A DNA stretch of 64,000 nt from a bacterium (GCA_021813945.1 JAKAJD010000001.1:335072-399071), one strand, 5' to 3'. Positions 5,207-58,594 are shown, numbered from the stretch's first letter. A program made the numbers and translations. The notes: a model not told the origin generated them from the letters alone.

Positions 5207-5276
5207 AAAAGGTCAGGCCCGCATAAGGGCAGGCCTTTGTCAAGATTAATCTAAGGTTAAGGCCTGCCCTTTACCC
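5207..5276. repeat. intergenic palindromic repeat element, copy A (13-nt inverted arms AAGGGCAGGCCTT / AAGGCCTGCCCTT)
   Basis: Seen in the sequence between tyrS and recG. The 3' arm and tail GGTTAAGGCCTGCCCTTTACCC are near-identical to copy G. Confidence 0.6.
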
Positions 5277-8088: not shown

Positions 8089-8340
8089 ATGACAGACACA
8101 GAAATTTTAGAAGATATCAAAAAAATAATCTCAAAAGACTTCGGCGTTCCCGCGGAAGATATCGAAGAGGACTCCAATCTGGATGAAGACCTAAACATTA
8201 CAGATTTGGAAATAGAAGATCTGGCGGAAAAACTTAGTCTAAAATACGACATCCAAATCCCTCAGGAAAAAATATCTTCATTTGTTAAGGTTTCGGATAT
8301 AGTCAACTATCTTTATGAAAACGTCGACACCACGCTCTAA
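8089..8340 (+). CDS. acyl carrier protein-like small acidic protein; the phosphopantetheine-site Ser is replaced by Asp
   Basis: 83-aa acidic four-helix pattern that aligns to ACP. The EDLGADSLD motif corresponds to EDLNITDLE here. It sits immediately upstream of rnc and overlaps its start, matching the conserved acpP-rnc synteny. Confidence 0.55.
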   Translation: MTDTEILEDIKKIISKDFGVPAEDIEEDSNLDEDLNITDLEIEDLAEKLSLKYDIQIPQEKISSFVKVSDIVNYLYENVDTTL

Positions 8341-37133: not shown

Positions 37134-39226
37134 GGACAAGTTGCCGCAGTTATAGATTGCCCCGGTGCTCCGGTAGAATTTGGTGGATATATGTGATTGC
37201 TTCCTTTATCAAAACTAAAAGCCTTCACTCGCCAAAAGTAAGTTGTCCCATTTTGCGGCATTAACTGATCTCCCGCCGTCTGTGAATCTGCATCACCGCT
37301 ATCCATAGGCCCAACTGTCATTGTTGGTGTCTCGCTATCCCACTTAAACAGCACAGGATTACCACTATCCGACATTTGTTTTTGGGTTCTGTAAATTCCT
37401 TTAACTCCCCAAACCGAAGGTCTTACGCTTGTACTCGAAGGGCCACCAAATGGATCGCGGCTTATATCGAGCCAAAAACCTGTTTCGAAAGTACTACTAT
37501 CCAAAAAGCTAAAGGTAACAACAGGGTTGGCGCCACTGCATGTTGTAGTAGCCGTTAAACCGGAAGGGTCACCGATAATAGGCGTAACAGTGGGACTAGG
37601 GGTTACAGTCGGACCTGTCGTCGGTGTGGCAGTGGGAAGCGGAGGTTGCGCAGTCCCGGTATCGCCCTGGGCGTAAAACGATGGTGTAGCAGATTTTGTA
37701 TATCCCAAAGGAGCTAAATCAAAAGTGGAATATACATTACCACCGGTTGGGACCTGCCACCTGTAAACTGCAATTAAGTTATTCTTAGTATCCTGATAAT
37801 TTTTCGCATAAAAGGCAATACCTTGAGATGCATAACTCCCACCAGGCGAGCTTGTCTCATAAAGATGAACACCGCTTGAATTGTCCAACCAGTCATAAAT
37901 GGGCACCAAATCGGAAGCCGAAACAGAGGAGGCGGTAAATGCATTACCTTCAAACGTGTACCCCGAAGGGCCGCTCGTCGAACTTTGCAAATAAACCGTA
38001 TTTCCTTTGCTGTCACGCCATTGATAAATAAAAGACCCTAAAACTATTTCCTGCATGTACACCTGATAATCTGTACCATTTGAATATGTCTCGTAAATAA
38101 TCGGTCCCTTGGCAAATTGCTCATGCTGAGCCCCTCCGTAACAAAAAAATCCGGTAGCGCCGCTAACCCATTGGTCGCAATGCACAAGAATTTGCTCGCT
38201 ACTCCAAGGACCACTTAAGCTGTCTGAGGTTCTTGCGGCTACCACACTTACAATTCCGGTATTGTAAGTTGCCACCCATTTACCAACAAAGGTGTTGTAT
38301 CTGACCGAGACACCATGAATATAAGTGAACGGATTCACATCGTTAAGCCATAAAAGCCCCGAGCCAGCCCTCCATAAAGGTGCAACAGCGGAAATATTTG
38401 ACACAAAGGAGCTACCATTCCAATATTGGTAGTCAGCAATATTATTTTTGGCAACAGACGCAATCGGTACCTTCATAAGACCAATTCCTATCTGTTGGCT
38501 CGTATTTTCAACAGAAACGTAAATATAAATATCACTTCCGGAAATTGTCGTCTGCGCACCCATCAACTTGATGCCATAAGTGCTGTAAAGCGTGTTATTA
38601 TTCCACAAATAGCAATTACTGGGATTCGTACAGGTACCAATCCTCTGCGTAGACAAATCCGTGACATTCATTTTTGCCAAACCTGTGCCTTGGGGATTAC
38701 CTGAAAAATCGACACCAACGTAGTAAAAATAAATGTAGCCGCTTGTAATAGTTGAATCAATCCAGGAAACAGGCCACGCGGTTAACTCACCAACCGTCGA
38801 AAGTAGGGGAAACATAGGCGTAGCAGTTGCTCCGGACGCCTTACTTGTTAAATTCATACACACAGAAGGGTCTGTATCGGTGGTATAACTTACGCTGTTT
38901 GGCATAATCCAAATACCACCACTTCCGGTAATATCCCCGAACATAAAATAGCTTTTTCCGCCAAGATAAGTACCGACCCCGCCATCCTGTCCGTAAATAC
39001 CAACACTGCGTTGATTCGCACCCAAAAGGGAACAAACTTTTCTGCTTGCAAAGGAAACAATTGGTTTATCCGTCTGAAAGGGAACACCGCTTGTGCTTGC
39101 CGATTTAACCTTGGATCTTGCCATGTCTTGACCCAGAAACAAAAGCGCACCGAAAACTAAAATTACTGAAAAAAATACAAAAAGGAACCTAAGATGATAA
39201 AGGCGTTCAATAAACATTACGGACAA
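37130..39226 (-). CDS. secreted or membrane-anchored Asp-box (BNR-like) beta-propeller protein with a Pro/Thr linker and a conserved C-terminal FN3-like domain (paralog A)
   Basis: N-terminal TM anchor. Degenerate Asp-box (TSDSLSGPW). PT-rich linker TPTTGPTVTPSPTVTP. The last ~150 aa are about 65 percent identical to the C-terminus of the upstream gene and end in YFWRVKAF...ATCP. Confidence 0.7.
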   Translation of the reverse strand: MSVMFIERLYHLRFLFVFFSVILVFGALLFLGQDMARSKVKSASTSGVPFQTDKPIVSFASRKVCSLLGANQRSVGIYGQDGGVGTYLGGKSYFMFGDITGSGGIWIMPNSVSYTTDTDPSVCMNLTSKASGATATPMFPLLSTVGELTAWPVSWIDSTITSGYIYFYYVGVDFSGNPQGTGLAKMNVTDLSTQRIGTCTNPSNCYLWNNNTLYSTYGIKLMGAQTTISGSDIYIYVSVENTSQQIGIGLMKVPIASVAKNNIADYQYWNGSSFVSNISAVAPLWRAGSGLLWLNDVNPFTYIHGVSVRYNTFVGKWVATYNTGIVSVVAARTSDSLSGPWSSEQILVHCDQWVSGATGFFCYGGAQHEQFAKGPIIYETYSNGTDYQVYMQEIVLGSFIYQWRDSKGNTVYLQSSTSGPSGYTFEGNAFTASSVSASDLVPIYDWLDNSSGVHLYETSSPGGSYASQGIAFYAKNYQDTKNNLIAVYRWQVPTGGNVYSTFDLAPLGYTKSATPSFYAQGDTGTAQPPLPTATPTTGPTVTPSPTVTPIIGDPSGLTATTTCSGANPVVTFSFLDSSTFETGFWLDISRDPFGGPSSTSVRPSVWGVKGIYRTQKQMSDSGNPVLFKWDSETPTMTVGPMDSGDADSQTAGDQLMPQNGTTYFWRVKAFSFDKGSNHIYPPNSTGAPGQSITAATCP

Positions 39227-42129
39227 GTTGCTGCTTTAATTGAAGTGCCGGGTGGGGTAAGACCTCCAGGGTAAATATGGTTGCTTCCTTGGCCAAAATT
39301 GAAAGCCTTAACACGCCAAAAGTAAGTTACACCGCTTTGAGGAGTTTTTTGATCAGCACCAATTGAAGAATCGGTATCTCCACTATCCGCTGGTCCAACA
39401 GTTAAACTCGGCGTTTCATTGTCCCAGGTAAATTGGACTGTGCCCCCAAGCCCTGTCATATCTGCAGCGCTTCTGTAAATTCCTTTTACACCCCAAACGG
39501 AAGGATTGGCGCTTGTATTTGAAGGACCATTAAAAGGGTCCTTAGATATATCAAGCCAAAACCCACTCTCAAAATTGCTATTGTCCAAAAAGCTAAAGGT
39601 GATCTTAGGGCTGGCGCCATTGCAAGAAGTGGTGGCAGTCAGATTCGACGGGTCACCGGCAATTGGAACGACAGTCGGGGATGGTGTTGGCGTTGGCATG
39701 GGAGTAGGTGTTGCTAAAGTGGGATCCTTTTGAAGGGTTACCTTCATCCAGTAAGTACTGTAAGGATTAAACCCTGTACAAAATCTGGACATTCTAAAAT
39801 ATACCACCTGTCCGTCGTTTTCCTCGTAACCTTCACGCATATAAGGTGCATACAAGCAAGGGTAAGTATTACCATTTACAATATCCTGTGGAGCACCCCA
39901 TGGTCCCCACAAATCAGGCGCCGACCTTAACTGAATTGTATACGGAGAAACATCCTTTAAATACATCATTATGTATTTTCCTAAATAGTTATCCCAACGG
40001 ACGCTTAATTCTCCAACGGGAGCAGGCACAACAATAACCGCAGAACTTTCAGCATTCACTGTCCAAGTTGGATTGCCGGAAGGGTCGAAACCCGTTACAT
40101 ATTCGTAGGCTGCCTTGTTTTCAATCGAACCCTCCAAAACTCGCATCAACTTTGCTCCGCCGGTCCTTCCACAGGGAATACCAAAAAAGTAGACATACCC
40201 GCCCTTCTTGTAAATTGCCACCTGGTTAAAGTTGCCGGGAGACCACTTTAGCCCCGAAAGTTTTGTCCAATTCTGGCCACCATCTGTCGATTTGGCAACA
40301 GATGAGTAATTGCAACTCCAGCTCGGTGAAATGGTGCCCTCAAAATAGAAGAGGTATCCTGTTGTTCCAATACTTACCCCATATGTTGGAATTGCCGTTT
40401 CGGTAGCCGGTCCGGCATCATGGGGGATAAGTGCCTTGGCTTTTCCGTCTGCACCGACAATCCAGCCGTCAAAAGTTATTCCGTCACTGGGATTACTATC
40501 AGTAGTATAAGAAAGAGTATTGCTTCGCCAGTTGACAGGGGTAGCGCTTAAGGGACACCCAAACGTGTCACCAAAAACGTTATAAACTTTCCCGTTCCAG
40601 TCAAACATGCTGCCTAAATCAGCACCACAAACATCGACATTTTGGGTAGAATTATTTCCATCCGGGCCAATTTCCTTGTTTACAGAACTCTGACGCGGCG
40701 TTGTACAAGTTTTGCCTGAGTATGAACCCTCTAAAGTCAAATCAGAAGCACTAATAAAGCCATCTGCATTAAGATCAAATCGCTTATCGTAAGTAGCACC
40801 GCCAGTCCTAGAGCCATAATGCGCAGAAATCAAACTCATATCAGCAGAGTCTGATATTCCGTCATTATTAAAATCAGGCGGCCAAGCGTTGGGTCCACAA
40901 GCAAGGTTAATATCTGTTCCCATGTAATTTTCTACATAATCGGTAAACCCATCTTTATCGGTATCCAAGGTAGGCAACGGAGTAGGTGTTGGAGTAGGCG
41001 GGGGATAATAAAGCTTTTCGCCAGCCGCCTTAGCCGCATCAAAATCAGCGATAAAATCCCACCAGTTGGAAAGCTCAGGATTAGGATTGTTAAGTCCCGG
41101 CATATTTTGCCACTGCCAAATGTGAAATTTTACTTCGTCACACTTCCACTCGTCACAATTTATGTTTACAGTTTGCCCTGTTCCACCTGGATTCCAATCT
41201 TCGCAATCCGTCCAAACAAATCTAGTATTGGAATAATCGTACGAACCCCATATCATATCCGGCGTCGCAGGAGTATTAGGCGGATCGTGCGTCCACCCAC
41301 AACGATGGGCGTTACCGGCGCCACTGCCGTCGTTATTGTAATAAGTCCTCCATGGACCCTCAAATTTACCTGTATAAGTTGTAGAGTCAATATTGTTATA
41401 AACTGCCTCAAGCTGATGCCCATGGTCATGGACGGCTGCATCTGTACCTCGTCCGTAATTGTAGTTGTATAAAACATACGTTTTGGAACAAACCGGCATA
41501 TCAGCTATTCCTTCGCTGTTGCTGATGTCCCCATAAGGCCCAGCCATATTCGACTCGGTTGGCTCAATGTTTCCCCAATGGTAACCAAAAACCCAAACTT
41601 CCTTTATCCCCTGTGTATCCACATAGTTGCAAATATTCAGATCAGTTAAAATTTTCATATAATCTGGCCTGTAAATGTTTGTGCCCGCCGGATACCAGGG
41701 GACAGCATTAGTACTAACCGGCATTGCAGCTAAATATTCCTTATCGTCAATAAAACTATAGTGCATAGAAACGGGAGCTGCGGCATCCTTATAACCATGC
41801 AACCTGCTTGCTTCTTCGAGGGCATTTAAAGTACCGCTCTTAAGGGTATCTACATAGGCTCTTACATCGGTAAGACTAGAAGAAACCCCCGTAATAGTCG
41901 AATCAAGGTTTATGCCATCTGCCGTCGGGAAATACCTCAACACCAAAACAGGCATATTATATTGCTTGGATTTATCCGGCACCCCAGCCGCCGCGGCCAG
42001 CACTTGAGGTTTTGCGGCAATCTTAACCTGATATCGTCCAAACCAAACGCCGATTGCTACCAATACAAAAAAGGAGGTGATAAAACCGTAAGAAGCAAAT
42101 TTTCTAAACCTAAAAGAAGCCCGAACCAT
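39217..42129 (-). CDS. large secreted or membrane-anchored protein: unknown N-terminal domain, dockerin-like Ca-binding repeat pair, Asp-box beta-propeller domain, PT linker and conserved C-terminal FN3-like domain (paralog B)
   Basis: N-terminal TM anchor. Dockerin-type repeats DFNNDGISDSADMSLISAHYG and DLNADGFISASDLTLEGSY. Canonical Asp-box STDGGQNWTK. PT linker. C-terminal module shared with paralog A. Overlaps paralog A by 10 nt, so the two are likely co-transcribed. Confidence 0.7.
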   Translation of the reverse strand: MVRASFRFRKFASYGFITSFFVLVAIGVWFGRYQVKIAAKPQVLAAAAGVPDKSKQYNMPVLVLRYFPTADGINLDSTITGVSSSLTDVRAYVDTLKSGTLNALEEASRLHGYKDAAAPVSMHYSFIDDKEYLAAMPVSTNAVPWYPAGTNIYRPDYMKILTDLNICNYVDTQGIKEVWVFGYHWGNIEPTESNMAGPYGDISNSEGIADMPVCSKTYVLYNYNYGRGTDAAVHDHGHQLEAVYNNIDSTTYTGKFEGPWRTYYNNDGSGAGNAHRCGWTHDPPNTPATPDMIWGSYDYSNTRFVWTDCEDWNPGGTGQTVNINCDEWKCDEVKFHIWQWQNMPGLNNPNPELSNWWDFIADFDAAKAAGEKLYYPPPTPTPTPLPTLDTDKDGFTDYVENYMGTDINLACGPNAWPPDFNNDGISDSADMSLISAHYGSRTGGATYDKRFDLNADGFISASDLTLEGSYSGKTCTTPRQSSVNKEIGPDGNNSTQNVDVCGADLGSMFDWNGKVYNVFGDTFGCPLSATPVNWRSNTLSYTTDSNPSDGITFDGWIVGADGKAKALIPHDAGPATETAIPTYGVSIGTTGYLFYFEGTISPSWSCNYSSVAKSTDGGQNWTKLSGLKWSPGNFNQVAIYKKGGYVYFFGIPCGRTGGAKLMRVLEGSIENKAAYEYVTGFDPSGNPTWTVNAESSAVIVVPAPVGELSVRWDNYLGKYIMMYLKDVSPYTIQLRSAPDLWGPWGAPQDIVNGNTYPCLYAPYMREGYEENDGQVVYFRMSRFCTGFNPYSTYWMKVTLQKDPTLATPTPMPTPTPSPTVVPIAGDPSNLTATTSCNGASPKITFSFLDNSNFESGFWLDISKDPFNGPSNTSANPSVWGVKGIYRSAADMTGLGGTVQFTWDNETPSLTVGPADSGDTDSSIGADQKTPQSGVTYFWRVKAFNFGQGSNHIYPGGLTPPGTSIKAATCP

Positions 42130-42350: not shown

Positions 42351-43280
42351 CTATTTGTTTCCCGAATGAAAGCTTTTATGAACGTCCTTTAATTGAGCAT
42401 TTGTAACGTGCGTGTAAATTTGAGTCGTTGCCACATTTTTGTGACCTAAAAGCTCCTGAACCGATCTTAAATCCGCGCCGTTCATCAAAAGGTCTGTTGC
42501 AAATGAATGCCTCAAAACGTGAGGCGACGCTTTAACAGGCAACTTCGCTTTTCTCACATATTTGTCGACAAGCCTCTGGACCGATCGGGGAGTAAGCCTC
42601 ATTTTTTCACCACTTATTGTTGGATCCTGGTTTCCCGAATATCTAATAAAAAGCGGCCCGAAAGCATCGCTTCTTTTGGCAAGATAACGCTCAAGCCACA
42701 AACAGGCTCTGTCCGAAAGAAAAACCACCCTGGCTCGGCCACCTTTACCGATTACCCCAAACTCGCGCCTTTCCAAATTAACCTGGTCCCTGTTAAGTCG
42801 GCACAATTCCGAAACCCTCAACCCTGTTGAAAAGAGCATCTCCATAAGCGCTTTATCCCTTAAACCCCGCTCTACTGAAACATCTGGTTGGCCCAAAAGC
42901 CGGTCAAGCTGGTCTCTGTCTAAAAACTTCAAAGACCTCGATTCCGTTTTCGGAAGTTCTATCTTATCCGGCGTCACAACCTTTAAATCTTTTTTGACTA
43001 AATATCGCAAAAATGATCTCAAAGCGATTACATAGTAGTTCTGTGTCACTTTTTTAATCGGTAAATTACCGTTTGGACTGTTATAATGGGCTAAATAGAC
43101 ACGAAATTTGCGAACAACCTCTAAAGTCAAATCCTGCGGCTTTAAAATAGGGGAGTTAGCTTTCGACCAATCGGAAAAAAACTCTAAATAATGTCGGTAG
43201 TCCCGGATTGTAAGAGGGGAAAGATTCCGTTCAATTTCGCAATATTCCAAAAATTCGTCAACCAGAGCAGGCAGGTCCAT
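42351..43280 (-). CDS. tyrosine site-specific recombinase XerC/XerD family
   Basis: N-terminal SAM-like core-binding domain. Catalytic-domain motifs ...R...HVLRHSFATDLL...LGH...TTQIYTHV (the R-H-R-Y set). Confidence 0.85.
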   Translation of the reverse strand: MDLPALVDEFLEYCEIERNLSPLTIRDYRHYLEFFSDWSKANSPILKPQDLTLEVVRKFRVYLAHYNSPNGNLPIKKVTQNYYVIALRSFLRYLVKKDLKVVTPDKIELPKTESRSLKFLDRDQLDRLLGQPDVSVERGLRDKALMEMLFSTGLRVSELCRLNRDQVNLERREFGVIGKGGRARVVFLSDRACLWLERYLAKRSDAFGPLFIRYSGNQDPTISGEKMRLTPRSVQRLVDKYVRKAKLPVKASPHVLRHSFATDLLMNGADLRSVQELLGHKNVATTQIYTHVTNAQLKDVHKSFHSGNK

Positions 43281-44858: not shown

Positions 44859-45266
44859 ATGAAAGAAGCCCCTGGTAATCTAAATCTAGATCCGGAAGAA
44901 CAAGCCGTAATAGAAAGCGCAAACTTGGCAATAGCTACAGCCAAAAAAAGGAAACGCTTGGATCTGGTCTATATGGTAAAAGGCCAAAAATACTCAACTA
45001 TAAAAATTGCCTTGCGTCGGAAATTTACACATCTTACAACAGCATTTGCCCAAACTGAATATGGTCCGCAAGAAACTCCACTTGTTCCGCTGGAAATAAA
45101 AGTTGATGCAGACAATTTAACAGACGATGTTTTAATCGATTCAACTATAGCTTTTTGCGAAAGTAATTTTCCTAACCTTAACAGGGCAACAGTAAATATT
45201 TTTGGAAGCCTTCGAGAATATATCAATAAAAGACCCTCAGTAAGTTTTGTAACGATTTCCAGATAA
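44859..45266 (+). CDS. hypothetical protein
   Basis: 135-aa ORF with no recognisable motif. Sits where frr would follow pyrH, but the sequence is not RRF-like. Confidence 0.35.
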   Translation: MKEAPGNLNLDPEEQAVIESANLAIATAKKRKRLDLVYMVKGQKYSTIKIALRRKFTHLTTAFAQTEYGPQETPLVPLEIKVDADNLTDDVLIDSTIAFCESNFPNLNRATVNIFGSLREYINKRPSVSFVTISR

Positions 45267-45318
45267 AGGGCAGGTCTTTTTCTTGCATTTTAGCCATGGT
45301 TAAGGCCTGCCCTTAACC
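45265..45318. repeat. intergenic palindromic repeat element, copy B
   Basis: AAAGGGCAGGTCTTT, 18-nt spacer, GGTTAAGGCCTGCCCTTAACC. Begins 1 nt before the stop of ORF 44859-45266. Confidence 0.6.
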
Positions 45319-46131
45319 TATTTTTAGCCTCGTTTTAGCCTCGCCGAGCCTCTAATTGCCCTTTAAAAGGCTTTTTATAAACCTAGTCGATAAATGGGCC
45401 AGAGTATATAGATCAATTTCCATCAATCCGGACCAAAAATTAACTATTTGTTATAAACAGGGGATAAGTGGATCGAAATTGGTCCGCAACAAAAAAAGAA
45501 AGAAAACTGAAAAAAGCGGGAAAACACGAAAAATATAAAAACGAGAAAGTCCATAAATTATGATAAGTTAAAAAGCTTCGCCCCCTCTCTCAGCCTCAGC
45601 TCGCGTCGCAAAAGTATCATTGTGCGACGTGGAAGCTAATAGGAAATAAGGCCCTACCATAGGGAATATAAGGGACAAATTTTTTGAAGTGATTTAAAAC
45701 TGTTTATTCTATTTTTGGTCACTTTTCGCCTCATTTTAGCCCTTCCCCGAAAAAGGCAAAAATGCCACTTTCTAATGCCTTTAGCAGTTAACTTGTCAAC
45801 ATGCCAAAAAATATGTAAGAATCTCTTACGTAGAGTAGCAGAGTCTTATAGTCCTCCGTCAGGATCGCCTTAATATATTATTTATATCTTTAGTTGCGGG
45901 AATTTTTTTCATCATCTAACTTTTTCACGGTTCCTTTTTTCACGATTTCACAAACTATAACTATATCACACTATATCACCTGTTTCCCTTCCCCACCTCC
46001 TCTATCCCCGGTTTTTATAATTTTTCCTGAAGCTAATTTGAAGCTAAAATTTTCTCTATTTTTGGAGGAAAATAACTAAAATATACCACTTCTCTACAAA
46101 ATACTATAGGTTAATAATCGTTCACTTATTC

Positions 46132-46177
46132 AAGGTCAGGTCTTAGCCCTAGATTAACCCAACAAAGGCCTGACCTT
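46132..46177. repeat. intergenic palindromic repeat element, copy C (divergent)
   Basis: AAGGTCAGG, 28-nt spacer, CCTGACCTT. Sits just after the stop of the gene at 46194-47024. Confidence 0.45.
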
Positions 46178-46193
46178 CACTTATCACTTACAA

Positions 46194-47024
46194 TTACCCT
46201 CCCCATCTGGACGAAATCATAATTATCACAGCTACAACTAAAGCAACCGATAAGTGCTCCCACACAATCCTTGGCCTCAGCTTTTCGTGAAACACAAACT
46301 GCCCCAGCCCCAAAAGAACATACATGACAGTGATAACGACAAGAGAAGCGTTTATTGGTGCCAGCGGCCAAAGCGAAAAAACTGTAGCGACTTGGGCAGT
46401 CACAAGAGCAAAAACGATTGTATGCCAAAACACTTTTCTGGTAATGTATTCCTCAAGTCCAAAAGACCACAAGTTAACTAAATATATGGGGCCACAAACT
46501 GCCGCAACCCCCAACACTGTTAAAAATATTGAACCGTGAAGTGAAAACAGGACGTTTAGCAAAAAAAACGCAGCCACCAGAGAAAACAAATGTCCAACCG
46601 CATGGGCTGCCCTAAGAAGCGCAATCGTGCGGATTGCGGCGACATTATAGATATTTGAAGTCAACATTAAAAGGTAAACCGAGATTCCAAATGCCAGGGC
46701 AAACGGCAAGCGCGTAATCCACCTAACCGGAAGTAAAAAGTAAAAAAGAGTCGCGCCCATTACAAAATAAACCGGCAGCAAAAGAAGCAAAAAATATTTG
46801 ATTCCCGAAAGCTCTCCCCAAAGCGAAAAAACAGCCAAAAGCAAGGTCGACAAGGCTAAAAAGGCCATCACTTGATACCTAAGTGATTCGGAAACGGTTT
46901 GTGTGGCAATCAAAATTGCAGTTAGAAAAAACGACATCAAAATGAACCTTTGACGTTTGGTTATTTCGTACGACGTTATTTTCGGAAAAAATTTAAATGG
47001 ATTTGAAAAAATTTTTAGCTTCAT
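46194..47024 (-). CDS. hypothetical polytopic membrane protein
   Basis: 276 aa with about eight hydrophobic helices. No motif recognised. Confidence 0.55.
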   Translation of the reverse strand: MKLKIFSNPFKFFPKITSYEITKRQRFILMSFFLTAILIATQTVSESLRYQVMAFLALSTLLLAVFSLWGELSGIKYFLLLLLPVYFVMGATLFYFLLPVRWITRLPFALAFGISVYLLMLTSNIYNVAAIRTIALLRAAHAVGHLFSLVAAFFLLNVLFSLHGSIFLTVLGVAAVCGPIYLVNLWSFGLEEYITRKVFWHTIVFALVTAQVATVFSLWPLAPINASLVVITVMYVLLGLGQFVFHEKLRPRIVWEHLSVALVVAVIIMISSRWGG

Positions 47025-47050
47025 ACCTTACACCTATTTCGGTTCTTAGC

Positions 47051-47101
47051 AAAGGCCAGGCCTTTACCCTAGACAATACGTAGTTAAGGCCTGGCCTTAA
47101 C
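47051..47101. repeat. intergenic palindromic repeat element, copy D (the best-conserved copy)
   Basis: AAAGGCCAGGCCTTT, 17-nt spacer, GTTAAGGCCTGGCCTTAAC. The ruvC stop codon lies inside the second palindrome. Confidence 0.65.
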
Positions 47102-47683
47102 ATTCGGCTTCGGCTTCGGCTTTGACTTCCCTACCTTTGTATTTCGACTTATCGAAACCTTTTTTACGTTTGATACATCTGTTAACTGTGTAACCTTTAT
47201 GTAGTGGCATATTGCAACTGCCAGCGCGTCTGCCGCATCGTCTATATAACCATTTTTCGGTTTTGCCAATTTCCTTTTACCTAAATACTTCATCACGTAC
47301 TTTTGGATTTCTTTTTTATCCGCCTTCCCGGAACCTGTTATTGTGTGCTTTACATGAAGACCTTGGTATTCAAATATGGGTATCCTATAGGATGCGACAG
47401 TCGAGAGTACTACTCCCCTTGCCTGCCCAACAGTCATTGCCGTTCTGGAATTTACTCCAAAGAACAATTGTTCAATAGAAACGCAATCGGGTTTATATTG
47501 TTTCAGTAGCTTGTGAAGGTCTTTTTGAATACTAAAAAGCCTCATAGGCATTTCCATCTCCTTTGGAGTGACAATACAACCGTATTCTATTAACTGAAAT
47601 TGCTTTCCAGAGCTTTCAACGAGGGTCTCAACAAGCCCATAGCCTGTTGTTGCAGTACCTGGATCTATGCCTAAAATCAACAT
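47084..47683 (-). CDS. ruvC: Holliday junction resolvase RuvC with a lysine/proline-rich C-terminal tail
   Basis: N-terminus MLILGIDPGTATTGYGLVE. RNase H-like catalytic acidic residues. C-terminal tail KSKPKPKPNVKARP. Confidence 0.9.
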   Translation of the reverse strand: MLILGIDPGTATTGYGLVETLVESSGKQFQLIEYGCIVTPKEMEMPMRLFSIQKDLHKLLKQYKPDCVSIEQLFFGVNSRTAMTVGQARGVVLSTVASYRIPIFEYQGLHVKHTITGSGKADKKEIQKYVMKYLGKRKLAKPKNGYIDDAADALAVAICHYIKVTQLTDVSNVKKVSISRNTKVGKSKPKPKPNVKARP

Positions 47684-47686
47684 GGA

Positions 47687-48421
47687 TTAATCCCTAACTC
47701 TGGGTCCGTCGTATTCGACTTCGTTTTCGTCCAAACGTCTGACCGGTTTTTCCCTCAGTGACTCTTCAACTACGTGTGCAACCAACCCTGGTACTCTGGC
47801 AATTATAAAAATACCTTTACCTACTTTAGGATTAAATCCCATCTCGAGAAGTAACGCCCCGAAAATTCCGTCTATATTTAGCGGCAATTTTTTGACACCT
47901 TTGGAAACTTCTGCTTCAACTTCCAGCGCAAACTTTACATACTTTCCGTAGAATCCAAGCTTCTTGGCAATCTCCAAAAGCTTTTGCGTTCTCGGATCAA
48001 CCGTATAAAGCCTGTGGCCAAAACCGCTGACCCGTTCTCCCCTTTTTGCAAAATCGGCAACCATTTCCGCAGCGCCAACACTCTGCCACTTTTTAAAATT
48101 CTCCATCGTCTGCTGTATTGCACCGCCATGGAATTCACCAAACGCCAAAACTCCGGCTGCAACAGCTGCCTGTACCGGCGACCCAGCCGAATAAACGTTT
48201 CTGGCCGCAACCACAGAAGAAGGTTCAACTCCATGATCAATAGCAATCGTAAATATTGCATCAAGCATTCTTTCCGAATTTTTGTCCGGCATCTTACCCA
48301 TCAAAATTAAATAGATTGTTCTTGTGAAAGATGGAGATTCTGCAAGTTTGGTCAAATCGTAACCATAAACATACGGCTTGCCGTTGTGATGTGTCGAAAT
48401 TGAAGTTTTATACTTTGCCAT
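47687..48421 (-). CDS. truncated citrate-synthase-family protein (candidate citryl-CoA lyase, or the ATP-citrate lyase C-terminal module)
   Basis: Citrate synthase signature GFGHRLYTVDPRT. Only 244 aa, which corresponds to the C-terminal catalytic half of citrate synthase. Confidence 0.7.
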   Translation of the reverse strand: MAKYKTSISTHHNGKPYVYGYDLTKLAESPSFTRTIYLILMGKMPDKNSERMLDAIFTIAIDHGVEPSSVVAARNVYSAGSPVQAAVAAGVLAFGEFHGGAIQQTMENFKKWQSVGAAEMVADFAKRGERVSGFGHRLYTVDPRTQKLLEIAKKLGFYGKYVKFALEVEAEVSKGVKKLPLNIDGIFGALLLEMGFNPKVGKGIFIIARVPGLVAHVVEESLREKPVRRLDENEVEYDGPRVRD

Positions 48422-48438
48422 TATCTAAATTATTATAC

Positions 48439-49332
48439 CTACTTAATAACTTTCTTCAAAATTCCAGGAATATCTTCAAAGTTTTCGGCCAAAATTGCGC
48501 CGGATTTTTTGATTGATGCCACTTTTTGCTCCATCGTTGAATCCAGCCCCACAATTGCACCGGCGTGGCCTAATGCAGTATCCTTTGGCAGTTTTTCCGC
48601 AAACTTTCCTGCCAAAAATATGATCAGGGGTTTTGTGAATTTTTTCTCCGCGACTAATTTAGCCGCCTCTATTTCCGCATTTCCACCAACCTCTCCAAAC
48701 ATCACGGCAACCTTTGTTTGAGGATCCCCTTCAAACATTTCCAAAACATCTACAAACGTTGTCCCGACAAGCAAATCACCACCAATTCCTACAACTGTTG
48801 ATTGCCCAAAACCGGCATTTGTAATCATGGAACCCAACTCCGAACACATTCCGCCGGATTTAGAAATCACTCCAACCGGACCCTTAGAAAAGGTAATCTT
48901 GGCATTCGGCCCGCCGATAGAACCGACCTTTCCTTCGCTCGGCGAAATTGCCCCAACAGAGTTTGGTCCTAAAACCCTAACCCCTTTTTCTTTTGCTCGA
49001 TACAATATTCGGCATGTATCTAAAACCGGAACCCTTTCCGCAAAAATATGTATTAGTGGAATCCCGGCATCAATTGCTTCCATCGCCGCATCCAATGTTA
49101 AAAGTGGTGGCACGTTGACCATTGCACAATCAACCGGACCAAGATCGGAAACCAACTCTTTGACCGAATTAAAAACCGGCAAATCCAACGCTTCCTGTCC
49201 ACCCTTTCCCGGCGTTACTCCCCCCACAACTTTCATCCCGTAATCTAAAAGATCGGCACATGCCGAAAGCCCCGATTTCCCGGTAATTCCCTGAATTAAA
49301 ACTTTAGTTTCGCTATCAACTAGAATTGCCAT
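48439..49332 (-). CDS. succinyl-CoA synthetase alpha-subunit-like protein (CoA-binding and CoA-ligase domains; phosphohistidine loop present)
   Basis: CoA-binding Rossmann N-terminus (KVLIQGITGKSG). GHAGAIVG phosphohistidine motif. 297 aa. Confidence 0.85.
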   Translation of the reverse strand: MAILVDSETKVLIQGITGKSGLSACADLLDYGMKVVGGVTPGKGGQEALDLPVFNSVKELVSDLGPVDCAMVNVPPLLTLDAAMEAIDAGIPLIHIFAERVPVLDTCRILYRAKEKGVRVLGPNSVGAISPSEGKVGSIGGPNAKITFSKGPVGVISKSGGMCSELGSMITNAGFGQSTVVGIGGDLLVGTTFVDVLEMFEGDPQTKVAVMFGEVGGNAEIEAAKLVAEKKFTKPLIIFLAGKFAEKLPKDTALGHAGAIVGLDSTMEQKVASIKKSGAILAENFEDIPGILKKVIK

Positions 49333-49340
49333 AATCTTTC

Positions 49341-49392
49341 GTTAAGGCCTGGCCCTAAAGTTTGATTTTCCCAGCCTAAAGGCCAGGCCTTT
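49341..49392. repeat. intergenic palindromic repeat element, copy E (inverted orientation)
   Basis: GTTAAGGCCTGGCCCTAA, 19-nt spacer, AAAGGCCAGGCCTTT. Located between the sucC-like stop and the sucD-like start. Confidence 0.65.
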
Positions 49393-50578
49393 CTCTTTTG
49401 AATTCTTCCGAAAGCTCAACCATTTTCTTGCATGCCACAGATATCGGTGTTTCCGGTCCAAACAAATGGATATCAAATCCTTCTTTTTTGGCAAAACGCT
49501 CAAGCATTTCGTATGCTTCTTTTTGCCTGGGCCCGCCGCGGCGAATAACGATCGGGTAATTCGGTTTTGGTTTTACTTTCAAAAGCCCGTCACAAAATCC
49601 GGCTAACGTTGCGTAAATATCCGTAAAATTGGCAACGGCTCCTGCGACCAAACAACCTGCCAAACCTTCTTTTCCTAATGTAATTTCGGTTAACTTTTCA
49701 ACTTTTTCCTGCGGCGGATTCCCGGAATATTCCGTGTAATTTGAAGGTTTGCCACCGACTTCTGAAAGCGCATCCATCACCAAAAGCGACGCTCCTCCGC
49801 CGGATGCCAAAACCGCGATATCTCCACCAAATTCTATAAAGGTGGAACCTGCACTTCCGCGATAATCTTCCTCGTCGATTTTTCTGGCCGCCAGCTCTCT
49901 TTCTGTCGGTACTGCTCCAGCAGAACCTTTTTGTAAAACATCCAAATCACGATGTCGCGCCAGGCCCGCATCATCCAAAATAATCTTTGCATCAACTGCT
50001 AAATAATCATCTCCGACCTTCGCAATCGGGTTCACCTCAACTAAACGACAATCGTATCTAACAAACGCATCCCAAAGCCTCACCAAGAAATCAACAAGTT
50101 TTTCGTCGCCCAAATTTTTAAAAAGTTCTTTTTTGTTTGGCCCCGAAAACGGATCAATGTCGAACCGCAAAATTTCATCCGGTGAATTCTTCTTAACCTC
50201 TTCTATATCCATTCCCCCGCTTTTGGAAAATAAAAGAAACGGAATTTTTAAAGTTGTGTCGTAAGTAATAGAAGCATAATATTCGCCTTCAATTTGCGCC
50301 TTTTCCGCAAGTGATATAAACCGCACTTGCTCATCAGCAAAAGTTGACCCAAACATTCCTTTGCAAAAATCCAGAAGCTGTTTTTCGTTTGTACAGATTT
50401 TTATTCCCCCACCTTTTCCCCGTTTTCCGGAAAGCACCTGCACTTTGGCAACTATCGGAAATCTCAACCTTTGTCTCGCTTGTTCGACTTCTTCCATGTT
50501 GGAGCAAGCCACAAAAAAAGGGCTTTCAATTCCCACCTTGGAAAGCAAATTGTGCCCTTCAAATTCGTAGAGTTTCAC
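49376..50578 (-). CDS. succinyl-CoA synthetase beta-subunit-like ATP-grasp protein
   Basis: ATP-grasp motifs KVQVLSGKRGKGGGIKI and EVNPI. C-terminal CoA-ligase domain (GGDIAVLASGGGASLLVMDAL). 400 aa. Confidence 0.85.
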   Translation of the reverse strand: MKLYEFEGHNLLSKVGIESPFFVACSNMEEVEQARQRLRFPIVAKVQVLSGKRGKGGGIKICTNEKQLLDFCKGMFGSTFADEQVRFISLAEKAQIEGEYYASITYDTTLKIPFLLFSKSGGMDIEEVKKNSPDEILRFDIDPFSGPNKKELFKNLGDEKLVDFLVRLWDAFVRYDCRLVEVNPIAKVGDDYLAVDAKIILDDAGLARHRDLDVLQKGSAGAVPTERELAARKIDEEDYRGSAGSTFIEFGGDIAVLASGGGASLLVMDALSEVGGKPSNYTEYSGNPPQEKVEKLTEITLGKEGLAGCLVAGAVANFTDIYATLAGFCDGLLKVKPKPNYPIVIRRGGPRQKEAYEMLERFAKKEGFDIHLFGPETPISVACKKMVELSEEFKRERPGL

Positions 50579-50634
50579 CAGGAAATTTTATCATAAACTT
50601 GGCTTAGTTTGGGCAAATCCTTTACAATATAGCC

Positions 50635-51060
50635 ATGGAAATTAGAACTGCTGTGGCAGAAGATTCAGATCAAATCCTGGCCCTGCAAACGCAAATCTAT
50701 CGCACCGATAAAATTGCCGAAAACGCCAAAGATGTTTTGGAAAAACAATTGGCGGATGAAAGTTGCGAAATTCTGGTGGCCGTCGATGAAGGCAAAATCG
50801 TCGGTACTTGCGCCATATATTATATAGAAGTCCCCGCCCGCGGCGGGCCCTATGCATTTTTGGAAGGCCTGGTTGTCGATTCAACAACCCGCGGAAAAGG
50901 AATAGGAACAAAAATGTTTGAGGAAATTATAAAAATCTGCCGAGCCAAAAACTGCTACAAACTTCTCTTTACTTCAGGCGCTGACAGAGAAGACGCCCAC
51001 AAACTCTACGAAAAACTAGGCTTCAAGAAATGGGGTCTGGAATTTCGGATGGATTTGTGA
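50635..51060 (+). CDS. GNAT family N-acetyltransferase
   Basis: 141 aa. Acetyl-CoA binding motif (GLVVDSTTRGKGIGTKM). Confidence 0.8.
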   Translation: MEIRTAVAEDSDQILALQTQIYRTDKIAENAKDVLEKQLADESCEILVAVDEGKIVGTCAIYYIEVPARGGPYAFLEGLVVDSTTRGKGIGTKMFEEIIKICRAKNCYKLLFTSGADREDAHKLYEKLGFKKWGLEFRMDL

Positions 51061-51066
51061 AAGAAA

Positions 51067-51561
51067 CTAGCCTCTTTTTCCCAAGTTCTTTAACGCGAGC
51101 TTAACTTTTCCTATCGGTAATCCTAGGGTTCGAGAAATCTCTGGGATTGATTTGCCCTGAGTATCAAGCTCATGAACTTCCCGCAAATGTCCCCCTCTTG
51201 AATCACTCCTCTTAAACATTGATCTTTCTGTGTGCGGTTTTGGTATTTTTATCTCAGAAAGTCGATATTTAGCGCGGATATCTAAAGAAGAGTTAAGCCA
51301 TAAATACTTTGTAAACCTTTCTACAATTTGACTGACACGCTCCCCGCTTAAACGATACATTTCGCCAATATCATAAATAGTTGCCCCGCTTGAGAAATAT
51401 ATCCCGGCTATATTTCTTTCTTTAATCCAAACATCTTCTGCATCAGAATAACGCATTAGCCTTTTGGGTACTTTTAAGTGCGCGCCCTCGGCCACAGCTT
51501 CCTTTAAAAACTCAAAAGTTTTCGGCTGAGCATACGGATATGGCCTTTCAGCTCTTTCCAT
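51067..51561 (-). CDS. hypothetical DNA-binding protein with two sigma-70 region-4-like HTH motifs
   Basis: HTH-like segments DIGEMYRLSGERVSQIV and IPEISRTLGLPIGKV. Confidence 0.4.
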   Translation of the reverse strand: MERAERPYPYAQPKTFEFLKEAVAEGAHLKVPKRLMRYSDAEDVWIKERNIAGIYFSSGATIYDIGEMYRLSGERVSQIVERFTKYLWLNSSLDIRAKYRLSEIKIPKPHTERSMFKRSDSRGGHLREVHELDTQGKSIPEISRTLGLPIGKVKLALKNLGKRG

Positions 51562-51602
51562 AACCCTATAGTATATAGACCTCGAGGCTAAAAGTCAATT
51601 TT

Positions 51603-52349
51603 TTAGTTCAAAAGATTGTCCGGAATATCGAAGTTGCTGTAGACCTTTTGTACCGCATCTAAATCTTCTAATTTTTCCACAAATGCCAAGACTTTTTCCG
51701 CTTCCGCTTTGTCGGTTATTGAAGCGGTTGTCGTTGCTTTTTTAAATAGTTCTGCAGATTGAACATTGAAGCCTTTTTCCGCCAAAGCATTTTTAACCTT
51801 TTCTACATCTGCCGGTTTTGTATAAACTTCAACAGAATCTCCTACATCCTCAACATCATCCGCTCCTACTTCCACCGCCGCTTCGAAAACATCATCGAGA
51901 GATTTGCCGTCTTTGGCAACAGTGACCATTCCGACATCGGTAAACATCCACGAAACAGCACCTGGCGATGCAAATGTTCCACCGTTTTTTTCTATCGTTC
52001 CACGGACTTCCGGAGTTGTCCGATTTTTGTTATCCGTCGCCGCTTCAATAATAATCGCAACTTTTCCGGGTCCGTATCCTTCGTAAACTACGGTTTCGAA
52101 TGCCGCTCCGCCTGCCTTTCCGGTCCCGCGGTCTATCGCCCTCTGGATATTAACGTTCGGCATATTAACCGCTCTTGCAGTATCCATCGCCAGCCGCAAT
52201 TTAAAATTGGATGCCGGATCCCCGCTTCCGCCGCCTTCGCGAACGGCAATCGTTATGGCGTTTGCCAACTTCGTAAACACCTGCCCGCGCTTGGCGTCGT
52301 TTAACCCCTTTTGTCTCTTTATTGTCGACCATTTGGAATGTCCGCTCAT
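51603..52349 (-). CDS. yebC: YebC/PmpR family DNA-binding regulator
   Basis: N-terminus MSGHSKWSTIKRQKG. Three-domain YebC/DUF28 pattern. 248 aa. Confidence 0.9.
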   Translation of the reverse strand: MSGHSKWSTIKRQKGLNDAKRGQVFTKLANAITIAVREGGGSGDPASNFKLRLAMDTARAVNMPNVNIQRAIDRGTGKAGGAAFETVVYEGYGPGKVAIIIEAATDNKNRTTPEVRGTIEKNGGTFASPGAVSWMFTDVGMVTVAKDGKSLDDVFEAAVEVGADDVEDVGDSVEVYTKPADVEKVKNALAEKGFNVQSAELFKKATTTASITDKAEAEKVLAFVEKLEDLDAVQKVYSNFDIPDNLLN

Positions 52350-57732: not shown

Positions 57733-57785
57733 AAAGGCCAGGCCTTTACGCTTTGACTTTCGATGGTTAAGGCCTAGCCTTAACC
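57733..57785. repeat. intergenic palindromic repeat element, copy F
   Basis: AAAGGCCAGGCCTTT, 17-nt spacer, GGTTAAGGCCTAGCCTTAACC. Located between the rluA-family gene stop and the kef start. Confidence 0.65.
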
Positions 57786-58594
57786 TAAGCCTGATTCCTT
57801 TCGTCAGTCGTTAGAAAAAGCATCGCATTTTTGAGATCGTTTGGCAAGTCGCACTCGAACGTTAAGACTTTCTTGGACCTTGGGCTGGAAAAGTAAATCT
57901 TTTTTGCGTGCAAATATAGCCTTGGACACCACACTTGATCAAACTTTAAAAGCTTTGACGGAGTGTAAATTAAATCGGAAACAACCGGATGGCCGATTGA
58001 TTTTAAATGTACTCTGATTTGATGAGTTCTTCCTGTTTTTGGGAAAACCGAAAGCAGTGTGTAATCCTGTCCATGCTGGTCAAGATATCTAACACGAGAT
58101 CTGTTATATCCTTTTTCAACAATTATATTTTCAAAATTTGAAATTTGAAATTTGAAATTTGAAATTCTTTCATAATCGGTAACAGCCTCCCTACCTCCCT
58201 CTTGTCGATTTTTGAGATTACCAAATTTGCCAAACTTGCCAATTCTAGCGATATTACTTGCAATTTCTCCACTGTCATCCTTTACCAATCCATGAACCAA
58301 AGCTATATATTCTTTTTTAACTCTCCTCTCTTTAAACTCGCCCTGCAAAAATTCAAAAGTCTTCTGGTTTTTAGCAACAACCAAAACTCCGGATGTCTCC
58401 CTATCCAATCGATGTACGATTCCAGCCCTTTCCCCTATTCCCAAATCGCCGTTGGCTAATTTGAAATAATCGGACAACTGATCCTGTAGAGTTTCCTCTC
58501 TGGAAGTTTCAGATTTGTTGACCGTCAACCCTGAAGGTTTGTCCAAAACTAAAAAATCTTTGTCTTCAAAAATAATATTAAGATTAGGCTTCAT
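57785..58594 (-). CDS. RluA-family pseudouridine synthase
   Basis: Catalytic motif HRLDRETSGVLVVAKN. Family motifs DKDFLVLDKPSGL and HQIRVHL. Confidence 0.85.
   Translation of the reverse strand: MKPNLNIIFEDKDFLVLDKPSGLTVNKSETSREETLQDQLSDYFKLANGDLGIGERAGIVHRLDRETSGVLVVAKNQKTFEFLQGEFKERRVKKEYIALVHGLVKDDSGEIASNIARIGKFGKFGNLKNRQEGGREAVTDYERISNFKFQISNFENIIVEKGYNRSRVRYLDQHGQDYTLLSVFPKTGRTHQIRVHLKSIGHPVVSDLIYTPSKLLKFDQVWCPRLYLHAKKIYFSSPRSKKVLTFECDLPNDLKNAMLFLTTDERNQA
58133..58165. repeat. heptanucleotide tandem repeat (AAATTTG)x4.7 inside the pseudouridine synthase CDS
   Basis: Read directly from the sequence. Encodes ...RISNFKFQISNFE... on the minus strand. Confidence 0.8.

Follow-up and report, generated by a model that had tools for sequence, protein, structure and literature searches.

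[quoted passage not shown] The Hydrogenobacter system consists of three separate polypeptides: a large subunit with ATP-grasp and citrate-binding domains, a small subunit that carries the phosphohistidine, and a lyase of about 250 aa that constitutes a citrate-synthase homology module. ACL joins the alpha-type subunit and the CCL module covalently in a single chain, AclA, of about 610 aa. As to CPR bacteria and DPANN archaea, a 2022 preprint reports that sequences annotated as SCS or citrate synthase are monophyletic with CCS or CCL, and PMC11976288 places DPANN sequences with eukaryotic ACLA/B.

In this context, we analyzed a 64,000-nucleotide stretch of DNA, hereafter the window, from a Curtissbacteria-like CPR bacterium with a tiny genome of about 976 kb. 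It contains three genes, P1 to P3, that probably encode an unfused, three-polypeptide system for ATP-dependent citrate cleavage of the citryl-CoA synthetase/citryl-CoA lyase type. This identity is based on domain architecture, residue conservation, phylogenetic placement, operon conservation and the co-evolution of the three genes. P1-P3 belong to the same gene family as the CPR/DPANN sequences of the 2022 preprint, and the enzyme type is already known from that preprint and from existing database labels.

The operon and its surroundings

The three genes follow each other on the minus strand. P1 (49376-50578) encodes a CcsA/AclB-like large (beta-type) subunit of 400 aa, P2 (48439-49332) a CcsB/SCS-alpha-like small subunit of 297 aa with CoA-binding and phosphohistidine domains, and P3 (47687-48421) a 244-aa candidate CCL with citrate-synthase homology. 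The ORF listing thus agrees with the consecutive minus-strand triad of the first-pass annotation in both coordinates and lengths. The calculated masses are 44.2, 30.6 and 26.9 kDa, and the spacers measure 43 nt between P1 and P2 and 17 nt between P2 and P3. One gene caller gave a shorter P1 of 373 aa; the GTG start of the longer form is supported by the alignment with CcsA, which runs from residue 1, and by M1 and E5, which are invariant in the family.

Downstream, ruvC (47084-47683, minus strand; NCBIfam RuvC 183 bits, cutoff 163) starts 3 nt past P3 and is probably co-transcribed with the operon. The same neighbor is found in 24 Curtissbacteria-type loci; it is functionally unrelated to the operon and reflects synteny at the level of the lineage. 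A scan of positions 46000-51700 for promoter and terminator consensus sequences returned counts at shuffle level (8 versus 9.2 and 7 versus 6.5), making it uninformative on the transcription unit. On the other side, a GNAT acetyltransferase of 141 aa (50635-51060, plus strand; Pfam Acetyltransf_1 75.5 bits) is transcribed divergently from P1 at a distance of 56 nt, an arrangement that recurs in 15 Curtissbacteria-type loci. The protein is a putative acetyl-CoA consumer. An assignment of its substrate was rejected, as the matches are generic to GNAT proteins and include, besides many others, GlcN-6-P acetyltransferases (25-31 bits). A co-oriented GlmU-like gene is located no more than 1.5 kb upstream of P1 in 21 of 68 loci, from CPR as well as DPANN genomes, and in 13 loci it abuts or overlaps P1. 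One GlmU-like protein, at locus L063, scores above the curated alt_bact_glmU cutoff, and the standalone forms match the acetyltransferase half of GlmU with 233-246 bits. The 64-kb window itself holds no GlmU-like gene.

The palindromic repeat placed between the first two genes by the first-pass annotation (its copy E) is a GC-rich hairpin at 49344-49391, read on the minus strand, which spans both the stop codon of P1 and the spacer to P2. Its perfect 11-nt arms occupy 49344-49354 and 49381-49391. As RNA it would form a 13-bp stem with an MFE of -28.4 kcal/mol (z = -4.1), a fold equaled by none of 200 shuffles. The core GGCCAGGCC has six copies in the window where 0.43 would be expected, and six similar hairpins, copy E among them, lie at the 3' ends of genes in this stretch. 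On the operon strand no U-tract follows copy E, and L010 and L027, the closest relatives, are the only ones to keep it at the P1-P2 junction.

The operon itself is widely conserved. Among the 80 best loci in named genomes, 74 have P1, P2 and P3 in this order on a single strand as unfused genes; all 74 loci with both P2 and P3 encode them separately, and a fused form occurs in 0 of 80 related loci. At least 477 species genomes, most of them from CPR bacteria and DPANN archaea, contain members of the family. The pairwise distance matrices of P1, P2 and P3 correlate with r = 0.73-0.86, values reached in none of 500 permutations; the three genes co-evolve. Additional ORFs interrupt the operon in about 30 relatives. 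They were considered as a recurrent fourth subunit and rejected for being too heterogeneous, comprising 23S-rRNA-IVS proteins, a Trp-repressor-like HTH, HAD, Fic and GIY-YIG-like proteins and unknowns.

Subunit identities

The large subunit P1 combines an ATP-grasp_2 domain (136 bits) with the Pfam domain Citrate_bind (88.4 bits, cutoff 26.8). Ligase_CoA is absent from P1 in the Pfam search, in which the E. coli SucC control scores 113.9 bits for this domain; the controls SucC, CcsA and AclB behaved as expected, and the CcsA control has the architecture of P1. Against the NCBIfam SCS-beta model P1 reaches 191 bits, below the cutoff of 370. Its top PDB matches are CcsA (6hxq_B, 187.6 bits) and AclB (6hxj_A, 149.3 bits), with 33-34% identity to the characterized CcsA and AclB and 25% to SucC. 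For the C-terminal domain taken separately, AclB scores 91, CcsA 82, human ACLY 58 and any SCS beta chain at most 34 bits.

Residue numbering between P1 and ACLY follows from the alignment with 3mwd_A together with a column analysis. It pairs P1 G286, N317, F318, T319, R346 and R347 with ACLY G309, N346, F347, T348, R378 and R379, and the citrate-site columns G286, N317-F318-T319 and R346-R347 hold the same residues in AclB and ACLY. In the human ACLY structure 3MWD, G309, N346, T348 and R379 reportedly bind citrate, and P1 is identical at the corresponding positions G286, N317, T319 and R347. The ATP-grasp residues K45, R53, E99, E181, N183 and D196 are conserved as well. In an NJ tree, P1, CcsA and AclB separate from every sequence with an SCS signature in 100 of 100 bootstraps. 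Within this group P1 pairs with AclB and not with Hydrogenobacter CcsA in 73 of 100 bootstraps, so that 'CCS' is an architectural rather than a clean phylogenetic label for P1. Firm clustering with bona fide SCS, which the first-pass annotation had named as grounds for abandoning its proposal, is found for P1 neither in the tree nor in domains or scores. Judged by these features, P1 should not be annotated as a succinyl-CoA synthetase beta subunit.

The small subunit P2 shows the Pfam domains CoA_binding, Ligase_CoA and Succ_CoA_lig, and the GHAGA phosphohistidine loop proposed for this SucD-like protein is indeed found at residues 255-259. H256 and E214 correspond to SucD H246 and E208; together with the CoA-site residues G15, T17, G18, P41, K43, P75 and E99 they are kept in 75-76 of 76 relatives (H256, P41, K43, P75 and E99 in 76 of 76; G15, T17 and G18 in 75 of 76). 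With 276 bits P2 stays under the NCBIfam SCS-alpha cutoff of 336. Taken alone it is nearest to SCS alpha chains, with 258 bits versus 184 for CcsB in the PDB; its top five PDB matches are all SCS alpha, and its identity to Aeropyrum SCS alpha is 44%.

P3 passes the curated NCBIfam citryl-CoA lyase model NF004869 (277.8 bits, cutoff 212), and all full-length citrate-synthase models of NCBIfam score far under their cutoffs. Hydrogenobacter CCL (6hxp_A) is its best PDB match with 210.6 bits, E = 2.5e-61 and 45% identity, against at most 85 bits for the citrate synthases in the PDB. The expected citrate synthase signature, GFGHRLYTVDPRT, lies at residues 133-145. The protein had been described as about half the length of a citrate synthase; it is shorter, but at about 57-65% (244 versus 370-430 aa) not strictly half. 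A loss of the catalytic His/Asp residues would have spoken against the lyase assignment, but H98, H136 and D184, equivalent to H264, H305 and D362 of E. coli GltA, are present and invariant. Likewise, R144, R209, R229 and F205 correspond to GltA R314, R387, R407 and F383, and together with H63 they make up all the citrate/oxaloacetate-binding residues of citrate synthase. H98, H136, D184, R144, R209 and F205 show no variation across 74 relatives, 58 of which also have R229. The retention of length and catalytic residues in 74 relatives indicates that P3 is under purifying selection and not in decay. Older annotations give P3 homologs the name 'citrate synthase'. At the level of sequence matching, the folds of P1 and P3 can be taken as settled by their similarity to the solved CcsA and CCL (E = 1e-54 and 1e-61).

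Proposed reaction, direction and role

By homology to SCS, CCS and ACLY, ATP would be bound by the ATP-grasp domain of P1 and its phosphoryl group passed to His256 of P2. Citrate, held in the C-terminal citrate-binding domain of P1 by G286, N317, T319 and R347, would then be converted to citryl-phosphate, which CoA bound to P2 would attack to give citryl-CoA. Finally, the P3 triad H98/H136/D184 would split citryl-CoA into acetyl-CoA and oxaloacetate. We infer both that citrate is the substrate and that the reaction runs this way in the cell.

Whether P1-P3 work in this direction is read circumstantially from the gene neighborhood. The same enzymes could run in reverse, turning acetyl-CoA, oxaloacetate, ADP and Pi into citrate, CoA and ATP, and thus act as an ATP-conserving 'citrate synthase' that provides a fermentative symbiont with substrate-level phosphorylation. 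All catalytic residues for reversible chemistry are present in P1-P3, and the ACL reaction lies near equilibrium; the ATP-citrate lyase of Desulfobacter postgatei, studied by Moller et al. in 1987, reportedly works in the citrate-forming, ATP-conserving direction. CPR bacteria are also described as fermentative, and PFOR converts pyruvate to acetyl-CoA in at least one Microgenomates genome (PMC7143001). Yet the recurrent partners of the operon, the GlmU acetyltransferase half and GNAT, consume acetyl-CoA and are not oxaloacetate-producing enzymes or citrate exporters; a reverse run would moreover need a steady supply of oxaloacetate, and an ADP-forming acetyl-CoA synthetase would reach the same ATP on a simpler path, which leaves citrate formation an unlikely function. 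A still smaller probability falls to a different acid, for example malate, citramalate, 2-methylcitrate or itaconate, with the matching acyl-CoA being made and cleaved. The identity of just 33-34% between P1 and its characterized relatives leaves room for this, as does the diversification of acid specificity in the SCS/ACL superfamily, reflected in NCBIfam matches to malate-CoA ligase and hydroxy-acid-CoA ligase; it is countered by the citrate-contacting columns of P1, identical to those of ACLY and AclB, and by P3, which keeps every citrate/oxaloacetate-binding residue and passes the CCL-specific model.

The origin of CCS/CCL research suggests another role, as the enzymes were discovered in Hydrogenobacter thermophilus as the citrate-cleavage step of the reductive TCA (rTCA) cycle. 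That the operon serves autotrophic CO2 fixation here, as in Aquificae, is highly improbable: no other rTCA gene lies within the 64-kb window, CPR/DPANN hosts with their ~1-Mb genomes are described as having no TCA cycles, respiratory chains or autotrophic pathways (PMC7143001), and a complete rTCA cycle occurs in few CCS/CCL-bearing taxa according to the 2022 preprint. P1-P3-type genes in small genomes should not be taken to indicate an rTCA cycle or carbon fixation. The absence of neighboring TCA-cycle genes remarked on before extends to the whole window, as judged by Pfam on the called genes. A reading of the locus as what genome reduction has left of a TCA cycle, with an ordinary SucCD beside a citrate synthase that is truncated and decaying, would fit the SCS alpha chains that are the best matches of P2 and the older name of the P3 homologs. 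It is contradicted by the scores of P1 and P2 below the SCS equivalog cutoffs, by P1, which has no Ligase_CoA, carries N-F-T in place of the G-I-V of SucC and separates from SCS in every bootstrap, and by the conserved length and catalytic residues of P3. The P1 domain and tree evidence and the conservation of P3 effectively refute this explanation, to which we assign a minimal probability.

Returning to citrate cleavage, the GlmU-like gene upstream in relatives and the GNAT gene beside the operon point to acetyl-CoA supply rather than carbon fixation. CPR bacteria generally have no complete TCA cycle (PMC7143001), a statement made for the group and not for this genome. In such a symbiont the operon may convert scavenged citrate into acetyl-CoA for acetyltransferases, a role for which we see an even chance. 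The chief candidate consumer would be a GlmU-type GlcN-1-P N-acetyltransferase, which would make UDP-GlcNAc for the cell envelope and recycle a small CoA pool. A more tentative extension, possible though somewhat less probable, is that CPR and DPANN share a mobile module of GlmU-type acetyltransferase, ccsA, ccsB and ccl, exchanged across domains, in which citrate would serve as the direct source of acetyl groups for UDP-GlcNAc and further acetylated compounds. Its hosts would be cells without a TCA cycle, the citrate would derive from the host or the environment, and the overall conversion would read citrate + ATP + GlcN-1-P -> oxaloacetate + ADP + Pi + GlcNAc-1-P, with a scavenged CoA pool recycled catalytically. 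If so, these episymbioses would involve cross-feeding of citrate as a key metabolite, and the module would represent a present-day unfused system that has the citrate site of ACL and stands between CCS/CCL and fused ACL. CPR and DPANN account for a large part of microbial diversity, and what their hosts supply is mostly guesswork. A conserved cross-domain operon leading from citrate to acetyl-CoA would, if true, name a concrete cross-fed metabolite and explain acetyl-CoA-dependent envelope synthesis in cells without a complete TCA cycle.

Relation to SCS, ACL and CCS/CCL

With SucCD the locus shares the superfamily and the division of labor between alpha and beta subunits, and P2 keeps the CoA-binding and phosphohistidine residues. 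It differs in P1, where Citrate_bind takes the place of the Ligase_CoA of SucC and N-F-T that of G-I-V, and in P2, where the whole family has Ser-Val/Ile at the position of Cys123-Pro124 of SCS alpha and Gly at that of Thr155; both subunits fall under the curated equivalog cutoffs. AclAB and ACLY have in common with it the overall chemistry, the phosphohistidine loop and the citrate-binding residues of P1, whose C-terminal domain matches AclB best. The fusion that defines ACL is replaced here by a stop codon and the 17-nt spacer between P2 and P3, which stay separate.

In architecture the locus corresponds to CcsAB and Ccl, which are likewise three separate polypeptides of similar size. The SCS-like subunits are unfused, P1 has the ATP-grasp and citrate-binding domains, P2 the phosphohistidine and CoA site, and P3 is a short module with His/His/Asp and the binding Arg residues that passes the curated CCL model. 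CcsA is the best full-length PDB match of P1, and CCL by far the best of P3. In contrast to Hydrogenobacter, all three genes form one tight operon, P2 (297 aa) is more SCS-alpha-like than the CcsB chain of 353 aa, and the citrate-site signature of P1 is the ACL-type N-F-T/RRGG instead of the N-N-T/RRNG of CcsA. Hydrogenobacter is a thermophilic autotroph, whereas the organism studied here is a CPR symbiont whose examined sequence gives no hint of an rTCA cycle. The earlier reports, in their accessible parts, make no mention of the three-gene operon, the ACL-type citrate site, the co-evolution or the GlmU/GNAT linkage. The first-pass annotation had left the choice between a CCS/CCL pair and a split ACL, and each holds in part: the unfused architecture is that of CCS/CCL and the citrate site of the beta subunit that of ACL. 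The combination of separate subunits with an ACL-type citrate site bears on the scenario that leads from CCS/CCL through ACL to citrate synthase.

Three unfused proteins with an ATP-citrate-lyase-type citrate site

As the first-pass annotation had described, three consecutive genes lie on the minus strand. P1, a CcsA/AclB-like beta-type subunit (49376-50578; 400 aa, GTG start, calculated mass 44.2 kDa), is followed after 43 nt by P2, a CcsB/SCS-alpha-like subunit (48439-49332; 297 aa, 30.6 kDa calculated), and after another 17 nt by P3, a citryl-CoA lyase-like protein (47687-48421; 244 aa, 26.9 kDa calculated), which ends 3 nt before the start of ruvC. Both motifs reported earlier were located, GHAGA at residues 255-259 of P2 and GFGHRLYTVDPRT at residues 133-145 of P3. 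Public gene calls differ on the start of P1, placing it at an internal ATG (373 aa) on k141_182599 of ENA ERZ27237587, a 975,962-bp metagenome contig that carries the exact P3 sequence, and at the GTG (400 aa) on other contigs. The GTG at 50578 is supported because the alignment with Hydrogenobacter CcsA begins at P1 residue 1 and because M1, L3, E5, E7 and K9 show little or no variation across the family alignment (n = 50).

In Pfam, P1 matches ATP-grasp_2 (136 bits) and Citrate_bind, the citrate-binding domain of ATP-citrate lyase (88.4 bits against a cutoff of 26.8), and its scores with the NCBIfam succinyl-CoA synthetase (SCS) beta models, 191 and 180 bits, fall below the cutoffs of 370 and 376. 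Controls validate this discriminator, since Citrate_bind matches Hydrogenobacter CcsA (59 bits) and Chlorobium AclB (188 bits), and E. coli SucC carries Ligase_CoA (114 bits) without a Citrate_bind match. Compared with the PDB at full length, P1 scores best with CcsA (6hxq_B, 187.6 bits), then with AclB (6hxj_A, 149.3) and Thermus SCS beta (138.7). When only the C-terminal 161 residues are used the groups part clearly, at 91 bits for AclB, 82 for CcsA and 58 for human ACLY, with every SCS beta at 34 bits or less. Following the alignment to 3mwd_A, P1 residues G286, N317, F318, T319, R346 and R347 occupy the columns of ACLY G309, N346, F347, T348, R378 and R379, which line the citrate pocket and which we take to contact citrate in the 3mwd structure. 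AclB has the same signature as P1, whereas Hydrogenobacter CcsA reads N-N-T / RRN and E. coli SucC G-I-V / RLE at these columns. The ATP-grasp catalytic residues K45, R53, E99, E181, N183 and D196 are conserved in P1.

P2 contains the CoA_binding and Ligase_CoA / Succ_CoA_lig domains and scores 276 bits with the SCS-alpha model, below its 336-bit cutoff. In the PDB it scores highest with SCS alpha chains (258 bits; Aeropyrum, 44% identity), followed by CcsB (184) and AclA (126). H256 and E214, equivalent to H246 and E208 of E. coli SucD, are conserved or near-invariant among 76 relatives, as are the CoA-site residues. Throughout the 76 operon-linked alpha subunits, Ser-Val/Ile stands in place of SCS alpha Cys123-Pro124 (P2 residues 125-126) and Gly in place of Thr155 (residue 161), substitutions that could form a signature separating the P2 family from true SCS alpha. 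P3 passes the curated citryl-CoA lyase model NF004869 (277.8 bits, cutoff 212). It scores 210.6 bits with Hydrogenobacter citryl-CoA lyase (CCL; 6hxp_A, E = 2.5e-61, 45% identity) versus at most 85 bits with citrate synthases, and it keeps the catalytic triad (H98, H136 and D184, corresponding to GltA H264, H305 and D362) together with H63, R144, R209, R229 and F205. Across 74 relatives, no variation is seen in the triad or at R144, R209 and F205.

Phylogeny, distribution and transfer of the operon

When all 1.84 billion cluster representatives were scanned with P1, 314 proteins had E <= 1e-30, and about 60 clusters outscore CcsA against P1. In a neighbour-joining tree of 126 representatives plus references (100 bootstraps), P1, the protein first described as SucC-like, falls in a group with CcsA and AclB apart from all SCS-signature sequences (100/100); P1 and AclB group without Hydrogenobacter CcsA in 73/100. 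P1 belongs to a large clade whose signature, N-F-T / RR, is of the ACL type (57 of 130 sequences).

With one genome considered per GTDB species, relatives are encoded in at least 477 species genomes, and the best 80 of these were used for locus analyses. Almost all 80 belong to CPR bacteria, the group holding Curtissbacteria (Curtiss-, Woyke-, Davies- and Woesebacteria, Microgenomates, Parcubacteria, Saccharimonadales), and to DPANN archaea (Woese-, Iain-, Micr- and Nanoarchaeia), the rest being a few Acidobacteriota, one genome labelled Alphaproteobacteria and one Heimdallarchaeota. The order P1, P2, P3, on a single strand and unfused, is found in 74 of the 80 loci; at the remainder contig ends intervene or, in one case, P3 is absent within the flank. 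Across the non-Curtissbacteria loci, the matrices of pairwise distances for P1, P2 and P3 correlate with one another at r = 0.73-0.86, a level reached by none of 500 permutations, and the three genes are therefore inherited as a unit, with P2 a dedicated partner and not a stray SCS alpha. In the concatenated tree, archaeal (DPANN) and bacterial (CPR, Acidobacteriota) loci interleave (L035, L039, L040, L061, L063, L083 and others), which implies that the whole operon was transferred between CPR and DPANN, sometimes with an upstream GlmU-like gene.

At about 30 related loci unrelated small ORFs interrupt the operon (for example L012 7259-7666, L064 7176-7571, L020 8484-8921, L031 2991-3428, L036 7212-7655, L078 8201-9499, L026 6556-6771 and L077 7263-7556). 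They include 23S-rRNA-intervening-sequence, Trp-repressor-like HTH, HAD hydrolase, Fic and GIY-YIG-like proteins and unknowns, and this variety suggests that selfish or accessory genes often insert into CPR and DPANN intergenic spacers. Operons 60-75% identical to those of Curtissbacteria or DPANN also occur in many MAG records whose titles read 'uncultured Gammaproteobacteria bacterium' or 'uncultured Methanosarcinales archaeon' (L012, L014, L017, L019 and other 'binchicken'/TPA loci; L051, L071, L072); these titles look like placeholder taxonomy, not to be taken at face value.

Genomic neighbourhood and direction of the reaction

After the triad itself, GlmU-like proteins are the most widespread neighbour family. 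At 21 of the 68 loci with sufficient upstream sequence, the end of a co-oriented GlmU-like gene lies no more than 1.5 kb upstream of P1, and at 13 of these 21 the gene abuts or overlaps P1. Some are standalone hexapeptide-repeat proteins matching the half of GlmU that acts as GlcN-1-P N-acetyltransferase (233-246 bits, model positions ~240-440) or the same half of archaeal GlmU; others are complete enzymes with both nucleotidyltransferase and acetyltransferase functions, and that of L063 scores 280.9 bits with alt_bact_glmU (curated cutoff 225.3). The window contains no GlmU-like gene; here, and in 15 Curtissbacteria-type loci, a GNAT acetyltransferase gene divergently adjoins the operon. Searches for the substrate of the window's GNAT gave matches generic to the GNAT family. 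Since both families use acetyl-CoA, the direction from citrate to acetyl-CoA is favoured, and the gene neighbourhood favours a CoA-recycling couple of operon and acetyltransferase. We give acetyl-CoA supply an even chance of being the role of the system; operation in reverse, with a yield of ATP, seems unlikely given these neighbours. Elsewhere, an 83-aa ORF (~8089-8340, plus strand) lying between nusB and the gene for RNase III has a weak PP-binding (acyl-carrier-protein-like) match, which suggests acyl-carrier-dependent reactions of some kind; these, too, could use acetyl-CoA.

Pfam on called genes and our own scans covered essentially the full window and found only housekeeping genes (PBP, TyrRS, RecG, NusB, RNase III, TrmD, type IV pilus, gyrase, CarAB, PyrH, integrase, RuvC, YebC, EF-P, Lgt). 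No TCA-cycle gene was detected in these 64 kb, in agreement with the earlier remark; CPR bacteria are reported to lack, in general, a complete TCA cycle and a respiratory chain (PMC7143001). Directly downstream of ruvC, a 276-aa protein (46194-47024, minus strand) with long hydrophobic stretches, syntenic in 23 Curtissbacteria-type loci, has no Pfam or NCBIfam match and is probably an integral membrane protein. Two very large neighbouring proteins (970 and 698 aa; 37130-42129 and 42351-43280, minus strand) beside a tyrosine integrase gene have DUF4185 and weak dockerin / DUF5648 matches and may mark a surface-protein island.

The palindromic repeat noticed between P1 and P2 (copy E) is real: its two 11-nt arms, 49344-49354 and 49381-49391, match perfectly, and the corresponding RNA folds into a 13-bp stem (MFE -28.4 kcal/mol, z = -4.1). 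It is one of six GC-rich hairpins in the window, each at a gene 3' end (5225-5271, 45266-45314, 46132-46177, 47052-47098, 49344-49391, 57734-57790), whose arms follow the pattern AAGGnCnGnCCTT and whose loops span 20-30 nt (20-26 nt in the five copies measured); the core GGCCAGGCC is present 6 times, the expected number being 0.43. On the operon strand, no U-tract follows any of the six. The family looks like lineage-specific REP-like or transcript-end elements. Of the relatives, only the closest (L010, L027) retain the hairpin at the P1-P2 junction. Copy E probably serves this lineage as an element for transcript ends or mRNA stability, outside the enzyme system.

Relation to known citrate-cleaving systems

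SCS identity was rejected for the P1-P2 pair: both score below the curated cutoffs, and P1 failed the domain test. A citrate / citryl-CoA system is the likely biochemical identity. The closest named homologues come from Candidatus Curtissbacteria (CPR / Microgenomates); those of P3 are called 'citryl-CoA lyase' (NCBI or JGI) or 'citrate synthase', and public sources attach no name to the exact P1, P2 and P3 proteins. In two earlier reports, sequences from CPR and DPANN that carry SCS or citrate synthase annotations are monophyletic with citryl-CoA synthetase (CCS) or CCL (bioRxiv 10.1101/2022.10.25.513756), and DPANN sequences branch with eukaryotic ACLA/B (PMC11976288). The family and its CPR/DPANN presence are already on record; added here are the conservation of the operon, the co-evolution of P1, P2 and P3, a citrate site of the ACL type and the link to acetyltransferases. 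With these papers and the existing 'citryl-CoA lyase' annotation, our finding is therefore a correct identification within a known kind of system.

The first proposal, CCS/CCL or a split ATP-citrate lyase (ACL), stands in part on each side. Hydrogenobacter CCS/CCL consists of three separate polypeptides in the same architecture as P1-P2-P3, whereas ACL is defined by the fusion of its alpha subunit to the CCL module, and P2 and P3, when tested, were unfused. Yet it is the beta subunit of ACL that P1 resembles in citrate site and tree position.
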